IMG/VR virus record: IMGVR_UViG_2799112265_000002
Coordinates: 1-64,000 of that record
Direction: 5' to 3' (one strand)
Length of the DNA: 64,000 nt
Source: a virus
Lineage: Duplodnaviria; Caudoviricetes
Numbering within the stretch: the stretch's first letter is position 1; every line of letters starts with the position of its first letter. The notes beneath the pieces are model-generated. The model was not told the origin of the DNA, made no database searches, and saw only the letters and a list, made by a program, of their open reading frames with translations. This document shows, one piece after another, positions 38,345-63,159 of the stretch. A program made the translations under genes and the position numbers.

Positions 38345-38399
38345 AAAAGCCCCCGGCGCTGAAGAGGTTCGAGACCTCAATTCACTGCCGGGGGCTTTT
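38345..38399. terminator. Bidirectional intrinsic terminator
   Basis: AAAAGCCCCGGC ... GCCGGGGCTTTT. Confidence 0.75.
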
Positions 38400-38495
38400 G
38401 CCCACCACACCCCGAGGCCCACCACAAACCCCGAGATGGGAAGAACCTAACATGCCCAGCCGACTTAATATCAACGGCGGATTCGGAGCCGCCGA

Positions 38496-39500
38496 GTGAG
38501 CATCCTGATCATGTCCGAGGTGTTCACGCACTCGAACACCCGCCTCGCCACGCGGCTCGTTCTGCTCGCGCTGGCGGACGCGGCCAACGACACCCACCGG
38601 ATGTGCTGGGAGTCCGCCGACACCATCGCGGGCAAGGCCCGTGTGTCCAAGCGGCAGGCGTACGTGTCCCTGGCCGCGCTGGAGAAGGACGGCATCGTCG
38701 AGCACGTACCGGAGGACCAGATCCCACTGGAAGCGCTGCGGTACAAGTCCGTGGTCCGGCGCATCAAGCCGGTATCGGAATGGCCCGAGAGTGCAGATTC
38801 TGCACCCCCTGAAAGTGCAGATTCTGCACCCCCTGTGTCGAAGTTTTCACCCAACCCCAATAACCAACTAGAAGTTAGAGATATAGAAGAAACTTCGTTT
38901 CTTCCACCGCGCCGTTCGGCACGGTCTGATCCCGGCGAAGCCGAGGAGATACCTGCCAGGCCGGGCGGCAAGGGATGGGACGCGGTCCGCGCTCCGCGCC
39001 AGGGCGGCCGGAAGAAGACCAAGAAGCAGGCGGCCATCGAGGCGGCTCAGGCGGAACTGGAACTCGACCCGGCGTACGTCGTGGCCCAGGCCCTCGGCGA
39101 AGAAGATGCAGGAAGCGTCCAGGACGGCCGTCTCCCGGCCTCGGACGACGACCTGGCCCCTCCGGTCCGGCGACCTCGTGAGAAGCGCTCCCTGCGGCCT
39201 TCTGAGGTTCTGGCCTCGTTCTTCGAGAAGCGGGCCTTGGAGGTGGGTCACCCGGTTCCCGGCGCGGTCAACCTCGGAGCCCTCGCCGGGAACTTCGGCC
39301 GGTGGATGAAGGAGGGTGTCCGGTACGAGGAGATCACCAAGATGATCATCACCTATTGGTCCGTCTCCTGGAACCGGTCGGAGAACGTGCCGGCCTGGAA
39401 GGACTTCCTCGCCGCCCGCGGTCTGCTGACCGAGCGGCTGGGCAAGGCCGAGAACGCGATGGAGAAGCACCGGCACGACGAGGACTACTGGTCCATGTGA
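38496..39500 (+). CDS. Replication initiator (N-terminal HTH)
   Basis: RLVLLALAD.A....CW.S..TIA HTH typical of actinophage initiators; internal iterons; followed by a DnaC-like gene. Confidence 0.8.
   Translation: MSILIMSEVFTHSNTRLATRLVLLALADAANDTHRMCWESADTIAGKARVSKRQAYVSLAALEKDGIVEHVPEDQIPLEALRYKSVVRRIKPVSEWPESADSAPPESADSAPPVSKFSPNPNNQLEVRDIEETSFLPPRRSARSDPGEAEEIPARPGGKGWDAVRAPRQGGRKKTKKQAAIEAAQAELELDPAYVVAQALGEEDAGSVQDGRLPASDDDLAPPVRRPREKRSLRPSEVLASFFEKRALEVGHPVPGAVNLGALAGNFGRWMKEGVRYEEITKMIITYWSVSWNRSENVPAWKDFLAARGLLTERLGKAENAMEKHRHDEDYWSM
38790..38905. repeat. Putative replication origin: two 22-bp iterons plus AT-rich tract
   Basis: AGTGCAGATTCTGCACCCCCTG at 38790 and 38814, followed by an A/T-rich segment to about 38905. 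Confidence 0.7.
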
Positions 39501-39506
39501 CCGACC

Positions 39507-39541
39507 CGAAGGGGCGGGCTGCTACGGCGGTCCGCCCCTTC
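39507..39541 (+). terminator. Stem-loop after the initiator
   Basis: GAAGGGGCGGGCTGC / GCGGTCCGCCCCTTC. Confidence 0.65.
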
Positions 39542-39633
39542 CCTGTTTGTAAAACGTTCAGCAAACACGTAATCGGTAAGGCGTAACTGTGGTAGCCTCC
39601 TGAGCGTTGAACCACCACCACAAGGAGGCCACC

Positions 39634-40290
39634 TTGGCGACAGACCCCCGGGTCCACGCCCTGCGGATGTCCGAGTACGGGATCCCGAAGCGGCTCCGCG
39701 GCCTGCGGCTTAATACCAGCGACGCACCCTGGAAGAGCGAGTGCCAGGAGTGGGTCGACAACCTGCGCGATCATTACGTCACCGACAAGCGGCCCCTGGA
39801 CCAGTACCCCGAGGACTGGAGCCAGATCGGCAAGGGCCTGCTGTTCCTGGGCCCTCCCGGCACCGGCAAGACCTCCCTGGCCACCGCCACGCTCCTGGAG
39901 TGCTACTTCGAGCAGCGCGTCCCGGTGTACTTCCTGGCCTACGCCGACTACGTCTCCATGTCGATCGAGCAGATGAGCCTGTCCGACCGCAAGGAGCCCG
40001 AGGCCATCGCCCGGTGGTGGCAGATCGAGGACGCCCTGAACTCCGCCCGCACGGCGCCCGTGCTGCTGCTCGACGACGTCGGCAAGGAGCACCGCACCAA
40101 GTCCGGCTACGCAGAGAACGAGCTGGACGTGCTGCTGCGCCTGCGGCACCGCGAGGGGCGCCCCACGCTCATCACCTCCAACGTCCCGCCGAAGGACTGG
40201 GGCGTGATCTACCACGAGTCCATGGGCTCCTTCATCCAGGAGTCCTTCCACATGATCAAGATGGTTGGGAGCGACCGCCGTGCAGCGTGA
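39634..40290 (+). CDS. DnaC/IstB-like AAA+ helicase loader
   Basis: GPPGTGKT, LLLDDVGKE, TLITSN; AAGGAGG RBS before TTG. Confidence 0.88.
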   Translation: MATDPRVHALRMSEYGIPKRLRGLRLNTSDAPWKSECQEWVDNLRDHYVTDKRPLDQYPEDWSQIGKGLLFLGPPGTGKTSLATATLLECYFEQRVPVYFLAYADYVSMSIEQMSLSDRKEPEAIARWWQIEDALNSARTAPVLLLDDVGKEHRTKSGYAENELDVLLRLRHREGRPTLITSNVPPKDWGVIYHESMGSFIQESFHMIKMVGSDRRAA

Positions 40291-40347
40291 ACTGTTGACT
40301 TCCCACAACGGGCTTAATACCCGGCTCCGCGAGGCGGAGCGCACCTG

Positions 40348-40803
40348 ATGGAACGGGGCGACATCTCCAACGAGGTCGTCCCCCGCCTGGTCATCGCGTT
40401 CGAGGGCATGCTCGGCGTCCTGCCGGAGAAGCCGGAGCGCGTGCACGAGCTGGTCGCCCGCAGGTTCGGGCGCCGGCAGCGCATGGCCAAGCGGACTGTG
40501 GACGCGTACGAGATCAACGACGCGCTGGCCCGGGTCATCTGGGACACCGTCTGGCGGTTCCGCTACTCGGTCGACGTCGTCACCTACCTCGGAGACGACG
40601 CTGTCGGGCCCCTGGAGGCCCGTCTGGACGCCGAAGGGCTTCCCATCGGCCGGGTGTGGGCCACGACCCCTGAGCGGCTGGCACGACGCCTGCCCTACAT
40701 GCCGGACGTCGCCGCGATCTTCGACAACGAACACCACCTGATCTACGGCAGCAAGGGCCGTTCCCTGCCCGCTGCCCCCACCACCCTCATAGGAGCGTTG
40801 TAG
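40348..40803 (+). CDS. Hypothetical protein (possibly degenerate HAD-like fold)
   Basis: LVIAFEGML resembles a DxDG strand lacking the aspartates; coupled to dnaB-like gene. Confidence 0.6.
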   Translation: MERGDISNEVVPRLVIAFEGMLGVLPEKPERVHELVARRFGRRQRMAKRTVDAYEINDALARVIWDTVWRFRYSVDVVTYLGDDAVGPLEARLDAEGLPIGRVWATTPERLARRLPYMPDVAAIFDNEHHLIYGSKGRSLPAAPTTLIGAL

Positions 40804-42068
40804 TGGCGGACTTCGAGCGCCTGCTCGTGTCCCGCGTCATCCAGGACAAGGACCTGGCCGACGTCGCGGACGCGGGCATCACCGCGGACTTCTTCGGCGA
40901 CCCCGACAACAAGGCCGTCTTCAAGGCCATCCTGCGACACAAGGCCACCTACGGCGAGGTCCCCAGCCTCGCCACCATCAAGACCGACTTCCCGACGTAC
41001 AAGTTCGTCAAGGTCGAGGACAGCATGCAGGTGCTGACCGACCGACTGCGCGAGCAGCACACCCTGGACCTGCTGGAGCAGGGCCTGGCCGACTCGGTCG
41101 ACGCACACGAAGAGGGCAACGCCAAGGCGGCCATGGAGGCGCTGGCACACACGCTGGCGTCCATCGCCTCGGCGGTGCCCAACTCCCGGGACACCGACCT
41201 GACGGAGACCGGGCAGGCACGGCTGGCCCGCTACCTCACGCTCAAGGACCTGCCCGACGGCCTGCGAGGTATCCCGACCGGCTTCCAGACCATCGACCGC
41301 GCCACCCAGGGCCTCCAGAAGGAGCAGTTGATCACCTTCGTCGGCCCTCCCAAGGCCGGTAAGTCCACGCTGCTCCTTCTGGCCGCCATGGCCGCGCACC
41401 TGTACGGCGTGAAGGTCCTGTTCATCGGCTTCGAAATGAGTAATGAGGAGCAGGAGGAACGTTTCGACGCCATCCGCGCGGGGATTTCCCACGCCCGGCT
41501 GAGGAACGGAACGCTCAAGAAGGCCGAGTGGGACAGGCTTGAAAGGGCCCTGCGGGAATTGGAGGCGATGCCCTCGTTCTTCCTGTCGTCGGACTCCATG
41601 AATGCGACGACGCTGACTGGTGTCGAGGCGAAGATTGACTCGCTGCGGCCCGAGGTCGTCATTATCGACGGCATCTACATGATGCAGGACGAACTCGGAG
41701 AGGCTCAGGGATCTCCGCAGGCGCTCACGAATCTCACCCGTGGGTTCAAGCGCATGGCGAAGAACCGGCAGTTGCCCATTCTCATCTCCACGCAGGTCCT
41801 CGAATGGAAGATGAACAAGAAGAAGGGGATCACCTCCGACTCTATCGGTTATTCGTCTTCCTTCGCCCAGGACTCCGACGTGATTCTCGGTGTCGAGTCC
41901 ACGGAGGACGCGAACATCAACAAGATCAAGGTGGTCCTGGCCCGTAACTGCCCGCCGCTGGAGACCTACTGCCAGTGGGACTGGGAGACCGGCAAGTTCG
42001 AGGAACTGAACGAGGACCCGTTCGCCATGGACGAGGTGAACACCGATGGATACGTCGGCGCCTTCTGA
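40803..42068 (+). CDS. DnaB-like replicative helicase
   Basis: GIPTGF..ID, GPPKAGKS, FEMS, IIDGIY, QDSD. Confidence 0.9.
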   Translation: MADFERLLVSRVIQDKDLADVADAGITADFFGDPDNKAVFKAILRHKATYGEVPSLATIKTDFPTYKFVKVEDSMQVLTDRLREQHTLDLLEQGLADSVDAHEEGNAKAAMEALAHTLASIASAVPNSRDTDLTETGQARLARYLTLKDLPDGLRGIPTGFQTIDRATQGLQKEQLITFVGPPKAGKSTLLLLAAMAAHLYGVKVLFIGFEMSNEEQEERFDAIRAGISHARLRNGTLKKAEWDRLERALRELEAMPSFFLSSDSMNATTLTGVEAKIDSLRPEVVIIDGIYMMQDELGEAQGSPQALTNLTRGFKRMAKNRQLPILISTQVLEWKMNKKKGITSDSIGYSSSFAQDSDVILGVESTEDANINKIKVVLARNCPPLETYCQWDWETGKFEELNEDPFAMDEVNTDGYVGAF

Positions 42069-42345
42069 GCCCCGCCTGGTGGTCCTCGCCGGGAACTTCC
42101 GGGAGTTCCTGTTCTGGTGCCGGGAGAACAAACGAAACCCCCGTGACCGGAACCTTATCTACGCCAGCGAAATGCACCGCCTGCAAGGCCTCGGCCCTAT
42201 CAGGTGGATCTCATACGGCACCGCCTATATGCGCCGCGACTACTGGGAAATGCGCCAGTACCTGAACTACCTGGAGAGGAGATACCAGTGCCCCGAGCAA
42301 AAGCCGGATGGGACGCAATCGGAAACCCCATCCCTGGAAACGTGA
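42046..42345 (+). CDS. Hypothetical protein
   Basis: Fills the gap between helicase and primase. Confidence 0.5.
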   Translation: MDTSAPSEPRLVVLAGNFREFLFWCRENKRNPRDRNLIYASEMHRLQGLGPIRWISYGTAYMRRDYWEMRQYLNYLERRYQCPEQKPDGTQSETPSLET

Positions 42346-43250
42346 CCGCGTGCCTGGACACCCTGGAACTCGACTACAAGGTCCAGGGCGACGAAATACA
42401 CATGCCGTGCCCCATGCATGAGGCGCGCACCGGAAAGAAAGACGCACACCCATCCTTTTCCATAAACTTCGACGAAGGGTATTTCAACTGCTTCTCCTGC
42501 GGATACCGCGGGGCCTTCTGGGTCCTCGTCCGCGACGTCCTGGACCTGGACGCGAGCGAGGCCAAGAACTGGGTCAGGAAGCGGGGCGGAGCGGAGCGCG
42601 TCCGGAAGTACCTGGAGAAGAAGAAGCAGCGCGCTGAGCAGGTCGACACGACCAAGCAGATCAACGAGGCGTCGCTGGCCCTGTACACCACGCCGCCGCT
42701 GAGCGCCTGCGCCGAGCGGTTCTTCCTGCCGGAGGACGCCGAGACGTGCGGGGTGCTGTGGGATCCGGCCCGGGACATGTGGATCATCCCGGTCCGCGAC
42801 CCCGACACCGGGATGCTGTGGGGCTGGCAGGAGAAGAACGAGCGGTACTTCCGCAACCGGCCGCCGGGCATGGCGAAGTCCAAGACGCTCTTCGGCTTGC
42901 ACACCTACGACGACGACGTGGCCGTGCTGGTCGAGTCGCCGCTGGACGTGGTCCGGCTGTGGACGTGCGGGATCCGCGGGGGCTTGGCTTCCTACGGCGC
43001 CGGAGTCTCCGACGCGCAGATGTCCCTGATCCGCGACCACTTCGACACCGTCATCGTCGCCCTCGACAACGACGACGCCGGAGCGAAGGCCTGCCAGCGC
43101 CTGAAGGACGAGTGGACCGGCCGCGGCCTGACCCTCAAGTTCCTCGACTACTCCGTGGCCCCGCACGCCAAGGACCCCGGAGACATGAACGCCGACCAGA
43201 TCAAGGCCGCCGTCCGCGGCGCCTACTCATCCATCCTCGCCCGTTTCTAG
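42288..43250 (+). CDS. DNA primase (Zn finger plus TOPRIM)
   Basis: CPMH..CFSC, LVESPLD, ALDNDDAG, KDPGD. Confidence 0.9.
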   Translation: MPRAKAGWDAIGNPIPGNVTACLDTLELDYKVQGDEIHMPCPMHEARTGKKDAHPSFSINFDEGYFNCFSCGYRGAFWVLVRDVLDLDASEAKNWVRKRGGAERVRKYLEKKKQRAEQVDTTKQINEASLALYTTPPLSACAERFFLPEDAETCGVLWDPARDMWIIPVRDPDTGMLWGWQEKNERYFRNRPPGMAKSKTLFGLHTYDDDVAVLVESPLDVVRLWTCGIRGGLASYGAGVSDAQMSLIRDHFDTVIVALDNDDAGAKACQRLKDEWTGRGLTLKFLDYSVAPHAKDPGDMNADQIKAAVRGAYSSILARF

Positions 43251-43297
43251 GAGCACACCGTGACGCTTAATACCTGCCCCCGCGAGGGGGACCCCCG

Positions 43298-43594
43298 ATG
43301 AAGGCACCCGAGGGCTACGAGCACCTGGGCCAGGAGTTCTGGGACCGCGTCGAGCCGGACCCGGACACCGACTGCCTGATCTACCAGTCCACCGCCACGC
43401 GGCCTTACTACCAGGGCAAGTCCCTGCTGACCTTCCTCACTGGAGGGGATGGCAGTCAGAAGCACAGGGCCTGCCGGCGTCGCATGTGTGCCAACCCTGA
43501 CCACATCCAGTCAGGGCACTTCAACCCCGGCACCCCGTTCGCCAAGAGGCCGCGGACCCGGGGACAGTTCAACCGGCAGTACAGCCAGTGCTAG
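43298..43594 (+). CDS. HNH-like protein (possibly degenerate)
   Basis: FWDRV..DC.I and C....CANPDHI. Confidence 0.55.
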   Translation: MKAPEGYEHLGQEFWDRVEPDPDTDCLIYQSTATRPYYQGKSLLTFLTGGDGSQKHRACRRRMCANPDHIQSGHFNPGTPFAKRPRTRGQFNRQYSQC

Positions 43595-53566: not shown

Positions 53567-54850
53567 ATGCCGCTTAATACCTGCGCGGGTGGCCCCGACA
53601 AGGAAGCCCTCGCACTCGTCGCAAAGATCAACAAGGCGCACCCGGGCGCCGTCTGCTTCGCCTCGGAGATGCGCATCCCCAAGCGGTTCACCTCCGGCTC
53701 ACTGTCCCTGGACATCGCCCTCGGTGGCGGCTGGCCGGGCAACCAGTGGGTCGAGGTCATCGGCCGCGAGTCCCACGGCAAGACCGCCATCGTCTACAAG
53801 ACCCTCGCCGCCAACCAGAAGAAGGACCCCACCTTCACCTGCCTGTGGATCGCCGCGGAGCACTACGACGTCGACCAGGCCTCCGCCCTCGGCGTCGACA
53901 ACGAGCGCGTCCTGGTGGTCCCCACCCAGGCCATGGAGTTCGCCTACCAGACCATGCTCGACTTCGCCGAGTCCCGCTCCGTCGACATGATCGTCCTCGA
54001 CTCCTACCCCGCGTTGATCGCGGACGAGGAGCAGGAGAAGGACATGGACGAGGCCGTCATGGCGCTCGGAGCGAGACTGACGGGCAAGTTTTTTCGCAAG
54101 AGCGGGGCGGCCACCAAGCGGTCCATGACGGACGCCGACGACCGCCCGCTGTTGGGGATCGTCATCAATCAGTACCGGGACGCCATCGGCAAGTTCTCAC
54201 CCCACGGCACACCGACAACCACCCCGGGCGGCAACGCCAAGAACTACGCGTTCTACACCCGCGTCGAGGTCCGGCGCGACGAGTGGATCCAGGAGTCCCG
54301 GCCGGGCAAGGGCAAGGTGAACGTCGGCCAGGTCATCAAGGTCAAGACCATCAAGAACAAGTCCGCCGCCCCGCAGCAGACCGCGACGATCGACTTCTAC
54401 TTCCGCAGCGCCCCCTTCATGAACTTCGCCCGCGGTGACTACGACACCGTCAAGGAGATCATGATCATGGGGATCCTCTTCGACGTCATCCAGCGCAAGG
54501 GCGCGTACTTCCAGATCGACAACGGCGAGTACGACGACAAGGGCAAGCCGGTCCTGCGCTGGCAGGGCAAGGACGCCATGCTCGACCACATCCGCCAGGA
54601 CCTGGACCTCCAAGAGGCCCTGTACGAGAAGATCCTCGTCGCCTCCAAGAAGGTCGACGAGCGGTCCATTTCCGAGGAGGACCTGGAGGCCGCCGAGTCG
54701 GCCGGCACCAAGAAGGTCCGGCGCCGTCCCTCTGGAGTCATCGACGACGGTCGGTACGAGCCCGGCACCGACCCGGAGAAGGACGCGAAGATCATGGCCC
54801 AGATGAACGCCCAGATGATGGCCGACGGGCTTAATACCGAGGCCGCCTGA
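53567..54850 (+). CDS. recA: RecA-like recombinase
   Basis: SGSLSLDIALGGG, GRESHGKT, VLDS, INQ.R, TTPGG, KNK. Confidence 0.92.
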   Translation: MPLNTCAGGPDKEALALVAKINKAHPGAVCFASEMRIPKRFTSGSLSLDIALGGGWPGNQWVEVIGRESHGKTAIVYKTLAANQKKDPTFTCLWIAAEHYDVDQASALGVDNERVLVVPTQAMEFAYQTMLDFAESRSVDMIVLDSYPALIADEEQEKDMDEAVMALGARLTGKFFRKSGAATKRSMTDADDRPLLGIVINQYRDAIGKFSPHGTPTTTPGGNAKNYAFYTRVEVRRDEWIQESRPGKGKVNVGQVIKVKTIKNKSAAPQQTATIDFYFRSAPFMNFARGDYDTVKEIMIMGILFDVIQRKGAYFQIDNGEYDDKGKPVLRWQGKDAMLDHIRQDLDLQEALYEKILVASKKVDERSISEEDLEAAESAGTKKVRRRPSGVIDDGRYEPGTDPEKDAKIMAQMNAQMMADGLNTEAA

Positions 54851-61569: not shown

Positions 61570-63159
61570 ATGCTCACGAAGAAGGAAATCGCCGCCCAGA
61601 ACCGGGACTTCAAGGCGACACAGAGGGGCGCAGCCGCGCAGATCAAGGCGGTCACCCCGCGCGCCAACAAGAAGACGCCCGGTCCGGGAGCGTACTTCGG
61701 AAGTGGCACCCCCGTCGCTCCCAAGGACACCCCGAAGGCCTCGGAAGTCGCTCCACCGGAGGGCTCCGGCATACCCGCGGTCACCCCCAGGCAGGAGAAG
61801 AAGGCCGCGGGGGTCAAGAAGCAGTTCAACAGCATCCGCGACACCTCGACCACGACGAAGAACCTGGCCAAGCGGCAAGCCCACGAGGCGGCCCACCCTG
61901 AGCGCTGGCAGTCCATCCAGGACCACCCGGGCGCCGGGTCGAACCCCCGCCAGTCCTACGGGCTGATGGGGAACACCGACAAGGCGCCGAACCTGCACGG
62001 CCAGCAGGAGCTGGAGGCCGTCAAGCGCGAGGGCAACACCTTCGTCTCTGACACCTCCGCCGATGTCTGGCACGGCCAGCACACCATGAACCCGACCCGG
62101 GACATGATGCCGGTGAACAAGCGGTGGGAGGACCACACTCCGGCGGAGCAGGCTCGTGTGCTGCGCTCGGCTGCGAAGTTCGGCGTCACCCCCGACTCCG
62201 CGCACCGTGCGCTGGCGGCCCAGGTGGACCGCGCCTACGCCCACGAGGGCGGGCACCACGACTCCTTCTACAGCCCGGCCGAGGACCACACCCGCGACGG
62301 CTCCCTGAGCCCGCGTGCGCGCCTGAAGGTGTCCGCGCAGGAGAATGGCGTCCCCTTCGGCGTCCAGGCCGCTGCGAACGCCATCACGTCCCCGCAGAAC
62401 GTCTTCGTGCGCCCGGACAAGAACACCGGCAAGGCCGTCTACCCGAACGACGAGGCCGCCTCCCACGCGATCCAGTGGGCGAAGTCGGGCAGGACCGGCG
62501 AGCAGTACGAGCGGCACCCGGACTACTACGTCCCGGCCGCCGACAAGGTGAAGAAGATCGTCACCTCGAAGTCCGGGCAGAAGAAGATGGAACTGGTGAA
62601 GCGGGACGACGACCCCCGCGCGTACCCGGTCAACGGCTACCCGGCCAACGCGAAGACGGCGATCGACGTCACCCACCAGGTCCTCAACGGCAAGCAGTTG
62701 TCGGACGCGTGGAAGCCGACTGCCGGCGAGAAGGTCTCGGCGTATCACAACTCGTGGGTCGACCCTCACGGCTCCAGCCAGTTCTGGGTGTCCGACACCC
62801 ACTCCGGCGGTGGCGCTTTCGCCCCGCACCTGGAGGACAAGAAGGGCTCCGGCAGCCAGCAGGCCTACATGGGCATCAAGGGCATCCACGCCTTCCACGA
62901 CCACATCGCGCGGAATGTGATGCAGGAGCGGGGCCTGAATTCGCTCACCAACATGCAGTCCGCCCAGTGGAGCGAGGAGAAGCGGCGCCGCGGCGACAAC
63001 CACGACGCATCGCTTAATACCTACGGCAAGAGCGGGCTTAATACCGAGGTCCACCCGGACCAAGGTCACCTGGAGGAGGGCGGTAGCAGCCTGTCCGCCC
63101 GCGGCATTGTTCCGAGCAGCAATGCGGTGGCCGCCGCTGTACGAGGACGGCGAAAGTAA
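61570..63159 (+). CDS. Basic hypothetical protein with possible HhH-glycosylase-like C-terminal domain
   Basis: A.TSPQ, KV.AY, DTH and MQ.AQW pattern; weak assignment. Confidence 0.55.
   Translation: MLTKKEIAAQNRDFKATQRGAAAQIKAVTPRANKKTPGPGAYFGSGTPVAPKDTPKASEVAPPEGSGIPAVTPRQEKKAAGVKKQFNSIRDTSTTTKNLAKRQAHEAAHPERWQSIQDHPGAGSNPRQSYGLMGNTDKAPNLHGQQELEAVKREGNTFVSDTSADVWHGQHTMNPTRDMMPVNKRWEDHTPAEQARVLRSAAKFGVTPDSAHRALAAQVDRAYAHEGGHHDSFYSPAEDHTRDGSLSPRARLKVSAQENGVPFGVQAAANAITSPQNVFVRPDKNTGKAVYPNDEAASHAIQWAKSGRTGEQYERHPDYYVPAADKVKKIVTSKSGQKKMELVKRDDDPRAYPVNGYPANAKTAIDVTHQVLNGKQLSDAWKPTAGEKVSAYHNSWVDPHGSSQFWVSDTHSGGGAFAPHLEDKKGSGSQQAYMGIKGIHAFHDHIARNVMQERGLNSLTNMQSAQWSEEKRRRGDNHDASLNTYGKSGLNTEVHPDQGHLEEGGSSLSARGIVPSSNAVAAAVRGRRK

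Follow-up and report, generated by a model that had tools for sequence, protein, structure and literature searches.

Conserved leader cistrons ahead of phage replication genes carry a frame-locked motif that may be read during translation

Three tiny open reading frames (ORFs; hereafter mini-ORFs), each overlapping the start of the gene that follows, lie in the replication region of a 64,000-nucleotide stretch of phage DNA, positions 1 to 64,000 of the Caudoviricetes record IMGVR_UViG_2799112265_000002 (hereafter the window). Comparison with homologous loci indicates that they are genuine, conserved leader cistrons and not chance open frames. Each contains one copy of a sense-strand element with the consensus SSG-CTT-MAT-AYC, followed by a GC-rich hairpin of variable sequence, which recurs throughout the genome and stands in the same reading frame at every copy counted. 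The interpretation that we favour, to which we assign a probability of roughly 45%, is that the leaders are translated and coupled to the genes that follow, and that the element acts on the mRNA in a manner linked to the ribosome. The complete virus record, denoted G000, is 105,651 bp long and classed as a provirus, and the window covers its first 64 kb; coordinates are window positions unless marked as belonging to the whole record.

The mini-ORFs were proposed in an earlier note on this DNA, and direct reading of the sequence places them exactly where it had them, at 38452–38499, 40280–40348 and 43260–43301 (Table 1). The stop/start overlaps claimed for them (GTGA, TGATG and ATGA, respectively) are borne out, as is the positioning of the motif in the Leu-Asn frame, all three copies reading CTT-AAT-AYC. 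The association with replication genes holds for these three but not as a limit, since mini-ORFs of relatives also precede a RecA-like gene and genes of other modules. Shine-Dalgarno (SD)-like runs lie ahead of each start: AGGAG (43249–43253) is 6 nt before GTG 43260, GGGAG is 8 nt before GTG 40280, and a weaker run, GGGAAG, is 8 nt before ATG 38452. The assignment of GTG 38496 as the initiator start is supported by a relative with a different initiator, which has an ATG at the same place.

Relatives were obtained from a DnaB search of viral contigs, which gave 43 loci, 41 of them close (best-segment DnaB identity 86–96%). Genome-wide counts refer to a set of eight genomes, comprising G000 and three contigs of 72–76 kb, in which the motif is CTTAATAYC, and four genomes of 98–110 kb, in which it is CTTCATAYC; the two kinds, with A or C at position 4, are denoted A-type and C-type. 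Sequence identity upstream of the 98-amino-acid (aa) gene is 75–91% among the relatives, so the contigs are not near-clonal.

Retention of the motif with loss of the frame, an outcome that the earlier note had suggested looking for at homologous loci, was never seen. At all 74 motif-bearing sites homologous to the three in the window (21 ahead of the initiator gene, 33 ahead of the 151-aa gene and 20 ahead of the 98-aa gene), both an ORF in frame 1 and the overlap of its stop with a start are retained; a further 24 loci lack a motif within 160 nt, and four show only partial matches. The initiator leader has an ATG start and a GTGA (or ATGA) overlap in each of its 21 motif-bearing loci, varies in length by 0 or −6 nt, is not conserved in its peptide past the motif, and is retained even with a different initiator gene downstream. 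Versions of the 40280-type mini-ORF in relatives measure 45, 69, 75 and 75 nt, all multiples of three, and every one starts with a GTG overlapping the loader stop and ends in TGATG. Ahead of the 98-aa gene, 16 listed relatives have an ATG and one extra codon, with the same frame and the same ATGA, and three other relatives carry CTTCATACC at the same position in the mini-ORF. The insertions and deletions that separate the mini-ORFs of relatives (3, 6 and 24 nt) are all in frame.

The same arrangement is found elsewhere in the genomes. In 13 of 21 motif-bearing gaps, compared with 15 of 330 motif-less gaps, a coupled mini-ORF spans half of the gap or more (plus-strand intergenic gaps of 25–200 nt in the eight genomes; Fisher p = 3.4e-11), although this p-value overstates the case as homologous gaps of different genomes are not independent. 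Among the copies outside called genes, 21 fall in mini-ORFs of fewer than 30 codons, 17 of which have a 1- or 4-nt stop/start overlap with the next gene. SD-like strings were flagged ahead of most mini-ORF starts in the eight genomes, and the leaders range from about 8 to 28 codons in the genomes examined (13–22 in the window).

All 228 copies of the motif within genes of the eight genomes are read CTT-MAT-AYC, and each of the 32 copies that fall outside called genes is in frame 1 of an ORF whose start lies upstream, so that none of 260 copies is untranslated or out of frame; judging by the list of called genes, these leave an estimated tenth or so of G000 uncovered. The bias is more than avoidance of TAA or TTA, because C-type copies, in which CTTCATACC has no stop in any frame, are still in frame 1 in 114 of 114 cases. 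The rare TCA and ATA codons that the other frames would require are used 32–47 times per genome, and in genomes not selected for the motif, peptide contexts that would permit it by synonymous change occur in the ratio 13:4:2 for frames 1:2:3. The 23 site clusters specific to C-type genomes are all in frame 1. Furthermore, TAA terminates 30 of 137 genes in G000 (22%), yet no A-type copy supplies its TAA as a gene end. A frame lock that extends well beyond the three mini-ORFs favours the translation-linked interpretation.

The element is abundant and strongly oriented. The window contains 31 hits with at most one mismatch against 1.78 expected (maximum of five in 100 shuffles), CTTAATACC being strongly over-represented, and the whole record contains 37 forward copies and one reverse copy, compared with none on either strand for a reversed control pattern. 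Forward copies outnumber reverse copies by 24–39 to 0–1 in five C-type genomes and by 28–33 to 0–1 in four large A-type contigs; the single opposite-strand copy per genome lies, in frame 1, in a small minus-strand gene beside the serine integrase. The motif is typically preceded by SSG and followed by NNGG. Of 62 copies in a Streptomyces genome, 37 fall in a prophage of ~118 kb, and the 25 in the other ~10.6 Mb are on both strands at background level. Besides replication genes, the sheath, baseplate-protein, NlpC/SLT tail and hub/spike genes contain copies, and copies overall are enriched near gene boundaries: 36 lie within 10 codons of starts (12.2 expected) and 43 within 20 codons of stops (23.4 expected), the commonest distance being exactly two codons after the start (17 of 228).

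Half of the relatives carry the C-type allele CTTCATACC. The two alleles are unmixed within the genomes compared, the sole exception being the Streptomyces prophage, which has one A-type copy among 36 of C-type. Grouping the copies gave 71 site clusters, of which ~25 are common to A- and C-type genomes at homologous positions, and at these the encoded residue switches from Asn to His. Within G000, 33 of 35 Leu-Asn-Thr tripeptides are spelled CTTAATACC, and where the other type has this tripeptide its spelling is CTGAACACC or CTGCACACC; Leu-His-Thr occurs 28–37 times in C-type genomes (21–30 of them spelled as the motif) compared with 3–4 times in A-type genomes. This usage indicates that selection is on the nucleotides and not on the peptide. 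A non-exhaustive search of the literature gave no description of the motif.

Several individual places in the motif's distribution merit description. At 63013–63045 two copies, with starts 24 nt apart, share one gene and one frame; in C-type genomes the first of these positions is occupied by CTGAACACC and the second by the motif, and in the Streptomyces prophage an A-type copy adjoins a C-type copy. At 87634–87660 of the whole record (L071:3634-3660) a copy is followed immediately by TAG, and its 3′ half forms a palindrome, AATACC-N7-GGTATT, which in C-type genomes is CATACC...GGTATG, so that the paired bases covary with type. Next comes a second, strong hairpin (region z = −3.55), upstream of an HTH_17/DUF2637 gene; the gene upstream of this site varies between genomes, and homology restarts at the motif. 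A 15–18-kb run of small genes with wide gaps (72335–87633 of the whole record and homologous blocks) has no motif in six of the eight genomes (G000, G001, G003, G004, G006 and G008) and may represent a separate expression class. In the distant contigs L049 and L050 a possibly analogous motif, GCTTGCGGA, was considered and set aside, as it has only six copies in 67.8 kb and is not genome-wide.

The 36 nt after the motif have a predicted folding energy of −13.0 kcal/mol, compared with −8.8 kcal/mol for background in-frame coding windows (p = 5e-9), and the upstream sequence shows no such effect. Strong hairpins are predicted at 109 of 252 unique sites, whereas 660 of 12,000 background windows have one, and motif-bearing positions fold more stably than homologous motif-less ones (−8.9 vs −6.4, p = 2.5e-7, for 96 non-independent comparisons). 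The spacer between motif and hairpin is 0–3 nt in about 85% of sites, placing the hairpin onset 10–13 nt from the first base of CUU, and compensatory changes are present in the stems. In the mini-ORFs the predicted hairpins include or abut the GGAG of the next gene, and at the position of the third leader's hairpin C-type relatives have a different one. At 40313–40328 the flanks CGGG and CCCG can close a 4-bp stem that exposes CUUAAUA as a 7-nt loop, and the general preference for G at −1 could allow pairing with the C at motif position 8.

Comparison with relatives also bears on the origin of the mini-ORFs. In L009, L010, L018 and L028 a gene of 74–82 aa lies between the loader and the 151-aa gene, and its last 11 codons comprise motif, hairpin and TGATG; the 22 codons of the second mini-ORF match the start of this gene and its C-terminal 11 codons. 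L028 and L033 have a zinc-ribbon-like gene of 65–67 aa ahead of the 98-aa gene, with the motif near its N-terminus. The third mini-ORF shares R-L-x-T-C with that N-terminus, and the corresponding mini-ORF of G004 matches both the N- and C-termini of the 65-aa gene of L028. Two of the three mini-ORFs are thus probably in-frame stumps of small accessory genes that are whole in relatives. Given these matches, the in-frame fusion of a leader module to the RecA-like gene in G000 (Table 1), and the relatives with a motif-less mini-ORF or with no spacer at all (described below), the tiny ORFs behave as stumps or detachable gene heads, which would be kept so that termination still falls on the next start. 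The change could have been either deletion of a gene or insertion into a leader.

Table 1. Mini-ORFs, motif copies, predicted hairpins and neighbouring genes in the window (z, folding score of the region relative to shuffles)
Feature	Position	Strand	Remarks
Mini-ORF 1, initiator leader, 15 codons, MPSRLNINGGFGAAE	38452..38499	+	ATG start; TGA 38497–38499 overlaps initiator GTG 38496 as GTGA
Motif copy, variant CTTAATATC, Leu-Asn-Ile	38464..38472	+	Motif scan; C-type relatives have CTTCATACT at the same place
Hairpin straight after motif, 6-bp stem; loop carries GGAG ahead of initiator start	38475..38494	+	Predicted fold; z = −0.05 alone
Mini-ORF 2, 22 codons	40280..40348	+	GTG start 11 nt inside end of loader gene; TGA 40346–40348 shares its A with ATG 40348 (TGATG)
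Motif copy CTTAATACC, Leu-Asn-Thr	40313..40321	+	Motif scan
Hairpin, 7-bp stem, 3-nt loop; 3′ arm includes GGAG ahead of ATG 40348	40324..40340	+	Predicted fold; stem kept in relatives; z = −0.86 alone
Mini-ORF 3, 13 codons, MTLNTCPREGDPR	43260..43301	+	GTG start; TGA 43299–43301 overlaps ATG 43298 as ATGA
Motif copy CTTAATACC	43266..43274	+	Motif scan; L009, L031 and L044 have CTTCATACC at the same position
Hairpin, 5 G-C pairs, 4-nt loop, 7 nt before ATG 43298	43277..43290	+	Centroid fold; z = +0.32 alone
Replication initiator gene	38496..39500	+	HTH_36 (Pfam), O-like (PHROGs)
Motif copy in IstB/DnaC-like loader gene, frame 1	39709..39717	+	Relatives have LNT or LHT at the same residue
151-aa gene	40348..40803	+	No Pfam or PHROG match
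98-aa gene, after primase gene	43298..43594	+	ORF; no Pfam or PHROG match
In-frame fusion of leader module to RecA-like gene (ATG, one codon, motif)	53567..53581	+	In four C-type genomes, a separate 10-codon mini-ORF ending on the RecA start
Motif copy 6 codons before RecA-like stop; loop of next hairpin holds TGATG overlap	54830..54838	+	Predicted fold, z = −1.85

In the mechanism that we favour, ribosomes translating a leader would read the motif as Leu-Asn-Thr or Leu-Asn-Ile, would melt the adjacent hairpin, which contains or abuts the ribosome-binding site of the next gene, and, after terminating, would re-initiate at the start codon that overlaps the stop. The element itself would be a pause, regulatory or processing site, with its specificity (A or C at position 4) set by a phage factor. 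As the hairpin begins 10–13 nt after the first base of CUU, a ribosome meeting it would, from general ribosome geometry, likely have CUU in its P site and AAU or CAU in its A site; the result could be pausing, regulated transfer to the next start, or ribosome-dependent cleavage. Action linked to the ribosome would explain the absence of out-of-frame or untranslated copies. A wider version of this proposal is more tentative, being in our view possible with odds clearly below even: the codon triplet CUU-MAU-AYC and its hairpin would form a cis-element working only when decoded in one frame, and, in a family of Streptomyces myoviruses, would constitute a code for regulation or mRNA processing that is read by translation throughout the phage and has a dedicated specificity factor. 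The 30–40 copies of the element would be spread over almost every gene module, some of them in leader cistrons made to hold the motif, with whole genomes switching in concert between Asn (AAU) and His (CAU).

A number of observations weigh against action through the ribosome. The A-type frame is largely forced, as frame 3 contains TAA and frame 2 needs TTA (used once in G000) and ATA, and C-type copies may owe their frame partly to descent, ~25 of the 71 clusters being common to both types. More than half of the copies lie more than 20 codons from either gene end, so leader and coupling logic cannot account for the deep copies. L037 and L038 keep a 40280-type mini-ORF that lacks the motif, and genomes of the L033 type have no spacer whatever; upkeep of the mini-ORF can therefore be independent of the motif. 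The probable derivation of two of the mini-ORFs from accessory genes points the same way. As to the hairpins, the three leader regions folded alone are no stabler than shuffles (z from −0.86 to +0.32; Table 1), single stem mismatches (12 G.T vs 8 A.C) give no clear sense-RNA signature, and antisense folds equal sense folds in stability. Finally, no trans-acting factor was identified among the phage proteins and tRNAs examined. The earlier note's proposal of an mRNA- or translation-level mechanism therefore stands in part: the frame lock and the conservation at 74 of 74 sites favour it, and the forced A-type frame, the two probable stumps and the motif-less ORFs of L037 and L038 detract from it. 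In light of the same three considerations, the alternative offered there, that the mini-ORFs preserve translational coupling across a DNA site, also explains the persistence of the ORFs.

Candidates for a factor that would set the specificity of the element were considered in turn. An 86-nt tRNA whose extra arm is long and whose anticodon is GUG (His), found at 95196–95281 of G001 (reversed orientation) and at the homologous place in G004, was rejected as the C-type factor, as it is present in only these two of the four C-type genomes, being absent from G003 and G005, and in none of the A-type genomes examined. The 151-aa gene segregates with motif type, but so do the primase and SNF2 genes, and it is not supported as a trans factor; on gene trees each of these three requires one change relative to motif type, compared with four for DnaB, three each for the loader and the 98-aa gene, and two for the initiator. 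The segregation may merely reflect two clades. The HTH_17, MerR-like and XRE-like proteins lack a type-specific signature. Translational bypass in the 43260 leader, with take-off followed by landing on ACC, was inspected by eye and discarded because the landing frame fails to join the next gene.

The main alternative is that the motif is a DNA-level site, either a stoperator-like site at which a repressor or regulator silences the prophage or a strand-specific signal for replication or priming; the frame bias would then reflect tolerated peptides and codons, and the mini-ORFs would be kept for coupling across a site wedged between genes. We regard this as somewhat unlikely, although much of the distribution would suit it: many short asymmetric copies whose orientation follows transcription, in a temperate phage with integrases and a relative resident as a Streptomyces prophage, enriched near gene boundaries. 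The palindrome at 87634 of the whole record, covarying with type, would suit a dimeric operator, and the perfect segregation of primase, 151-aa and SNF2 genes with type, the stem mismatches and the motif-less mini-ORFs of L037 and L038 are all compatible with it. The two genome-wide alleles recall the cognate site/repressor pairs of Cluster A phages, to the extent that these are covered in the part of the report drawn on here (PMC6550527). A DNA site is harder to reconcile with the lack of any untranslated or out-of-frame copy among 260, with a frame lock in C-type genomes, where no stop forces the frame, and with the avoidance of the motif's TAA as a gene stop when TAA makes up 22% of stops. 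Moreover, a protein binding duplex DNA needs no adjacent hairpin of variable sequence. A cognate repressor covarying with the consensus was not found in the one clear candidate, an XRE-like protein (100635–101444 of the whole record), other DNA-binding proteins remaining as candidates: the G000 copy is 78% identical to two C-type copies and 69% identical to an A-type copy, with a near-identical helix-turn-helix, and the HTH_17 protein beside the palindromic site has no type-diagnostic columns.

The probable derivation of two of the mini-ORFs from small genes leads to the view that the mini-ORFs are mere leftovers of deletions, with the motif in the N- or C-terminal tails and in-frame deletions surviving through retention of the overlap, which would imply nothing about motif function. 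The 40280 and G004 mini-ORFs, which equal the joined ends of longer genes, the first residues that the 43260 ORF shares with one of those genes, the fused rather than separate RecA leader of G000 and the motif-less stump in L037 and L038 all accord with it. We nonetheless think it improbable, as it leaves unexplained both the occurrence of frame 1 in every gene and the ~14-fold excess of coupled mini-ORFs in motif-bearing gaps; none of 25 loci examined has a long gene corresponding to the initiator leader, and insertion into a leader fits the comparisons as well as deletion of a gene does. Programmed recoding, for example a hairpin-stimulated +1 frameshift on CUU that diverts some ribosomes, seems to us very improbable. 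CUU, the slippery codon of prfB and Ty1, is the first codon of the in-frame motif, the codon preceding it is G-rich, and a hairpin starting 10–13 nt from the first base of CUU has the geometry of a frameshift stimulator. The alternative frames after the motif, however, have neither conserved open stretches nor rapid termination, their stop distances resembling background (a median of 45–53 codons in the +1 frame at sites vs 28–34 in background, with the −1 frame closed only in A-type); AAU and CAU are not known as hungry A-site codons, and the product of 30–40 sites per genome within essential genes would be wasted. Chance open frames are scarcely credible as an explanation: stops are rare in DNA of 65% GC, and 15 of 330 motif-less gaps also contain a coupled mini-ORF, but retention with overlap at 74 of 74 sites, insertions and deletions that are all in frame, and 13 of 21 against 15 of 330 gaps tell strongly against it.

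Among described systems, the SAS/ESAS repeats of Cluster K mycobacteriophages and the stoperators of Cluster A phages offer the closest parallels. The former, within the part of the source considered (PMC3203893), are short asymmetric repeats with 11–19 copies per genome, nearly all pointing the same way, several genomes having one copy on the opposite strand; some have inverted repeats, the consensus varies by subcluster, the host genome lacks the repeats, and they have been proposed to act in translation initiation. The two elements share their brevity, asymmetry, predominant single orientation, ties to gene starts, phage specificity and a consensus that differs between relatives. In contrast, the part of the SAS report considered places SAS 3–7 bp upstream of start codons, containing the Shine-Dalgarno core and only in the non-structural half of the genome, whereas the present motif is inside ORFs, after the start or deep within genes, frame-locked and also in structural genes, and its hairpin, not conserved in sequence, comes after it and not before (PMC3203893). 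It thus has neither the upstream placement with an SD core nor the restriction to the non-structural half, as far as these are set out in that part of the source.

The stoperators of Cluster A phages resemble the motif in numbering tens of short asymmetric sites per genome, mostly in one orientation to transcription, with a consensus that differs between related temperate phages (PMC6550527). Many asymmetric copies in one orientation relative to transcription are equally a trait of the present motif. Stoperators are duplex DNA sites of the immunity repressor, for which the part of PMC6550527 used here describes neither a frame lock nor an adjacent hairpin; by comparison with that partial account, the present motif has no untranslated copies, and its candidate repressor does not covary with type. 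Stoperators and similar systems are known from L5 and R4-like phages, including phages of Streptomyces, and coupling through leader peptides or upstream ORFs is known from ermC/ermCL, secM-secA and phage gene pairs overlapping as ATGA. The mini-ORFs appear to belong to this last kind, leader-ORF coupling: they are short, with their own ribosome-binding site, a stop on or at the next start, a predicted hairpin at the downstream ribosome-binding site, and a peptide that is not conserved past the key codons. Known leaders are individual devices, however, whereas the present ones carry an element repeated 30–40 times per genome, mostly in long genes; the mini-ORFs are thus probably ordinary in form, being coupled leaders and likely gene stumps, and it is the motif they carry that is unusual. 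Recoding signals that combine in-frame codons with a 3′ structure, such as the CUU +1 sites of prfB and Ty1 and the bacterial SECIS, similarly have fixed in-frame codons with a hairpin a few nucleotides downstream within coding sequence; the present motif differs in having no stop codon, classical slippery heptamer or conserved alternative-frame product, and a far higher copy number.

Although oriented short repeats are known in actinophages (stoperators, SAS), none found in the literature searched is frame-locked, intragenic and rewrites proteins to Leu-Asn-Thr or Leu-His-Thr. If the element is indeed read by ribosomes, the genes of large Streptomyces phages would be under a further, novel layer of control, and the alleles that occur naturally, with A or C at position 4, together with the leader mini-ORFs, are ready-made reporters that make this directly testable. 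Even if the motif were a DNA site, selection for coupling would preserve in-frame stumps of deleted genes, which matters for annotation: the leaders are real features missed by gene callers.

The window is 65% G+C and nearly all of its genes are on the plus strand. Pfam matches identify a contractile-tailed phage, with terminase, portal, sheath, tube and baseplate proteins, two integrases and a replication block; the order of the latter (Pfam, PHROGs) is HTH_36/O-like initiator, IstB/DnaC-like loader, 151-aa gene, DnaB, DnaG-type primase, 98-aa gene and SNF2 helicase. The integrases, together with a related prophage resident in the genome of a Streptomyces sp., indicate that the phage is temperate. 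The closest isolated phages by DnaB protein are the BRock-like Streptomyces myoviruses (42–43% identity), and a nucleotide search of a phage collection with this DNA gave no near or distant match. Among 24 public sequencing runs listed, all in the form of contigs, the two RNA runs contained only 0.07 of the sampled words. For the 151-aa gene, a HAD/NT5C-like nucleotidase is a lead only, its Atlas feature matches to NT5C-bearing clusters scoring 0.90–0.91; the 98-aa gene has an HNH-like C..NPDH motif, spotted by eye only.

Within the initiator gene, at 38790–38835 and 38840–38905, there are two tandem 22-bp units, each with an internal inverted repeat, followed by an AT-rich stretch; they look like iterons and an origin, for which lambda O provides the comparison case of iterons inside an initiator gene. 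Between a 403-aa gene and the initiator leader, at 38349–38399, a 29-nt loop containing a T-arm-like GGTTCGAGACC is closed by a 9-bp stem of G+C, after which comes TTTT; the structure is terminator-like, or possibly a remnant resembling a tRNA fragment. The remainder of the record encodes an Rnl1-like RNA ligase, PNKP, RlaP, an Lsr2-like protein and four tRNAs. The RlaP-like nucleotidyltransferase, the ligase and PNKP form an RNA-repair set that, together with the neighbouring tRNA cluster (Pro(TGG), Phe(GAA), Leu(CAA) and Asn(GTT)), occupies 89487–93448 and 95732–96959 of the whole record, an arrangement that suggests a counter to tRNA-cleaving host defence. At the left end of the window, on the minus strand (1–2055), a serine recombinase ORF runs past the end of the record and has a C-terminal match to DUF4096 (IS4/5 transposase-like), which may reflect a fusion or a prophage/host junction.

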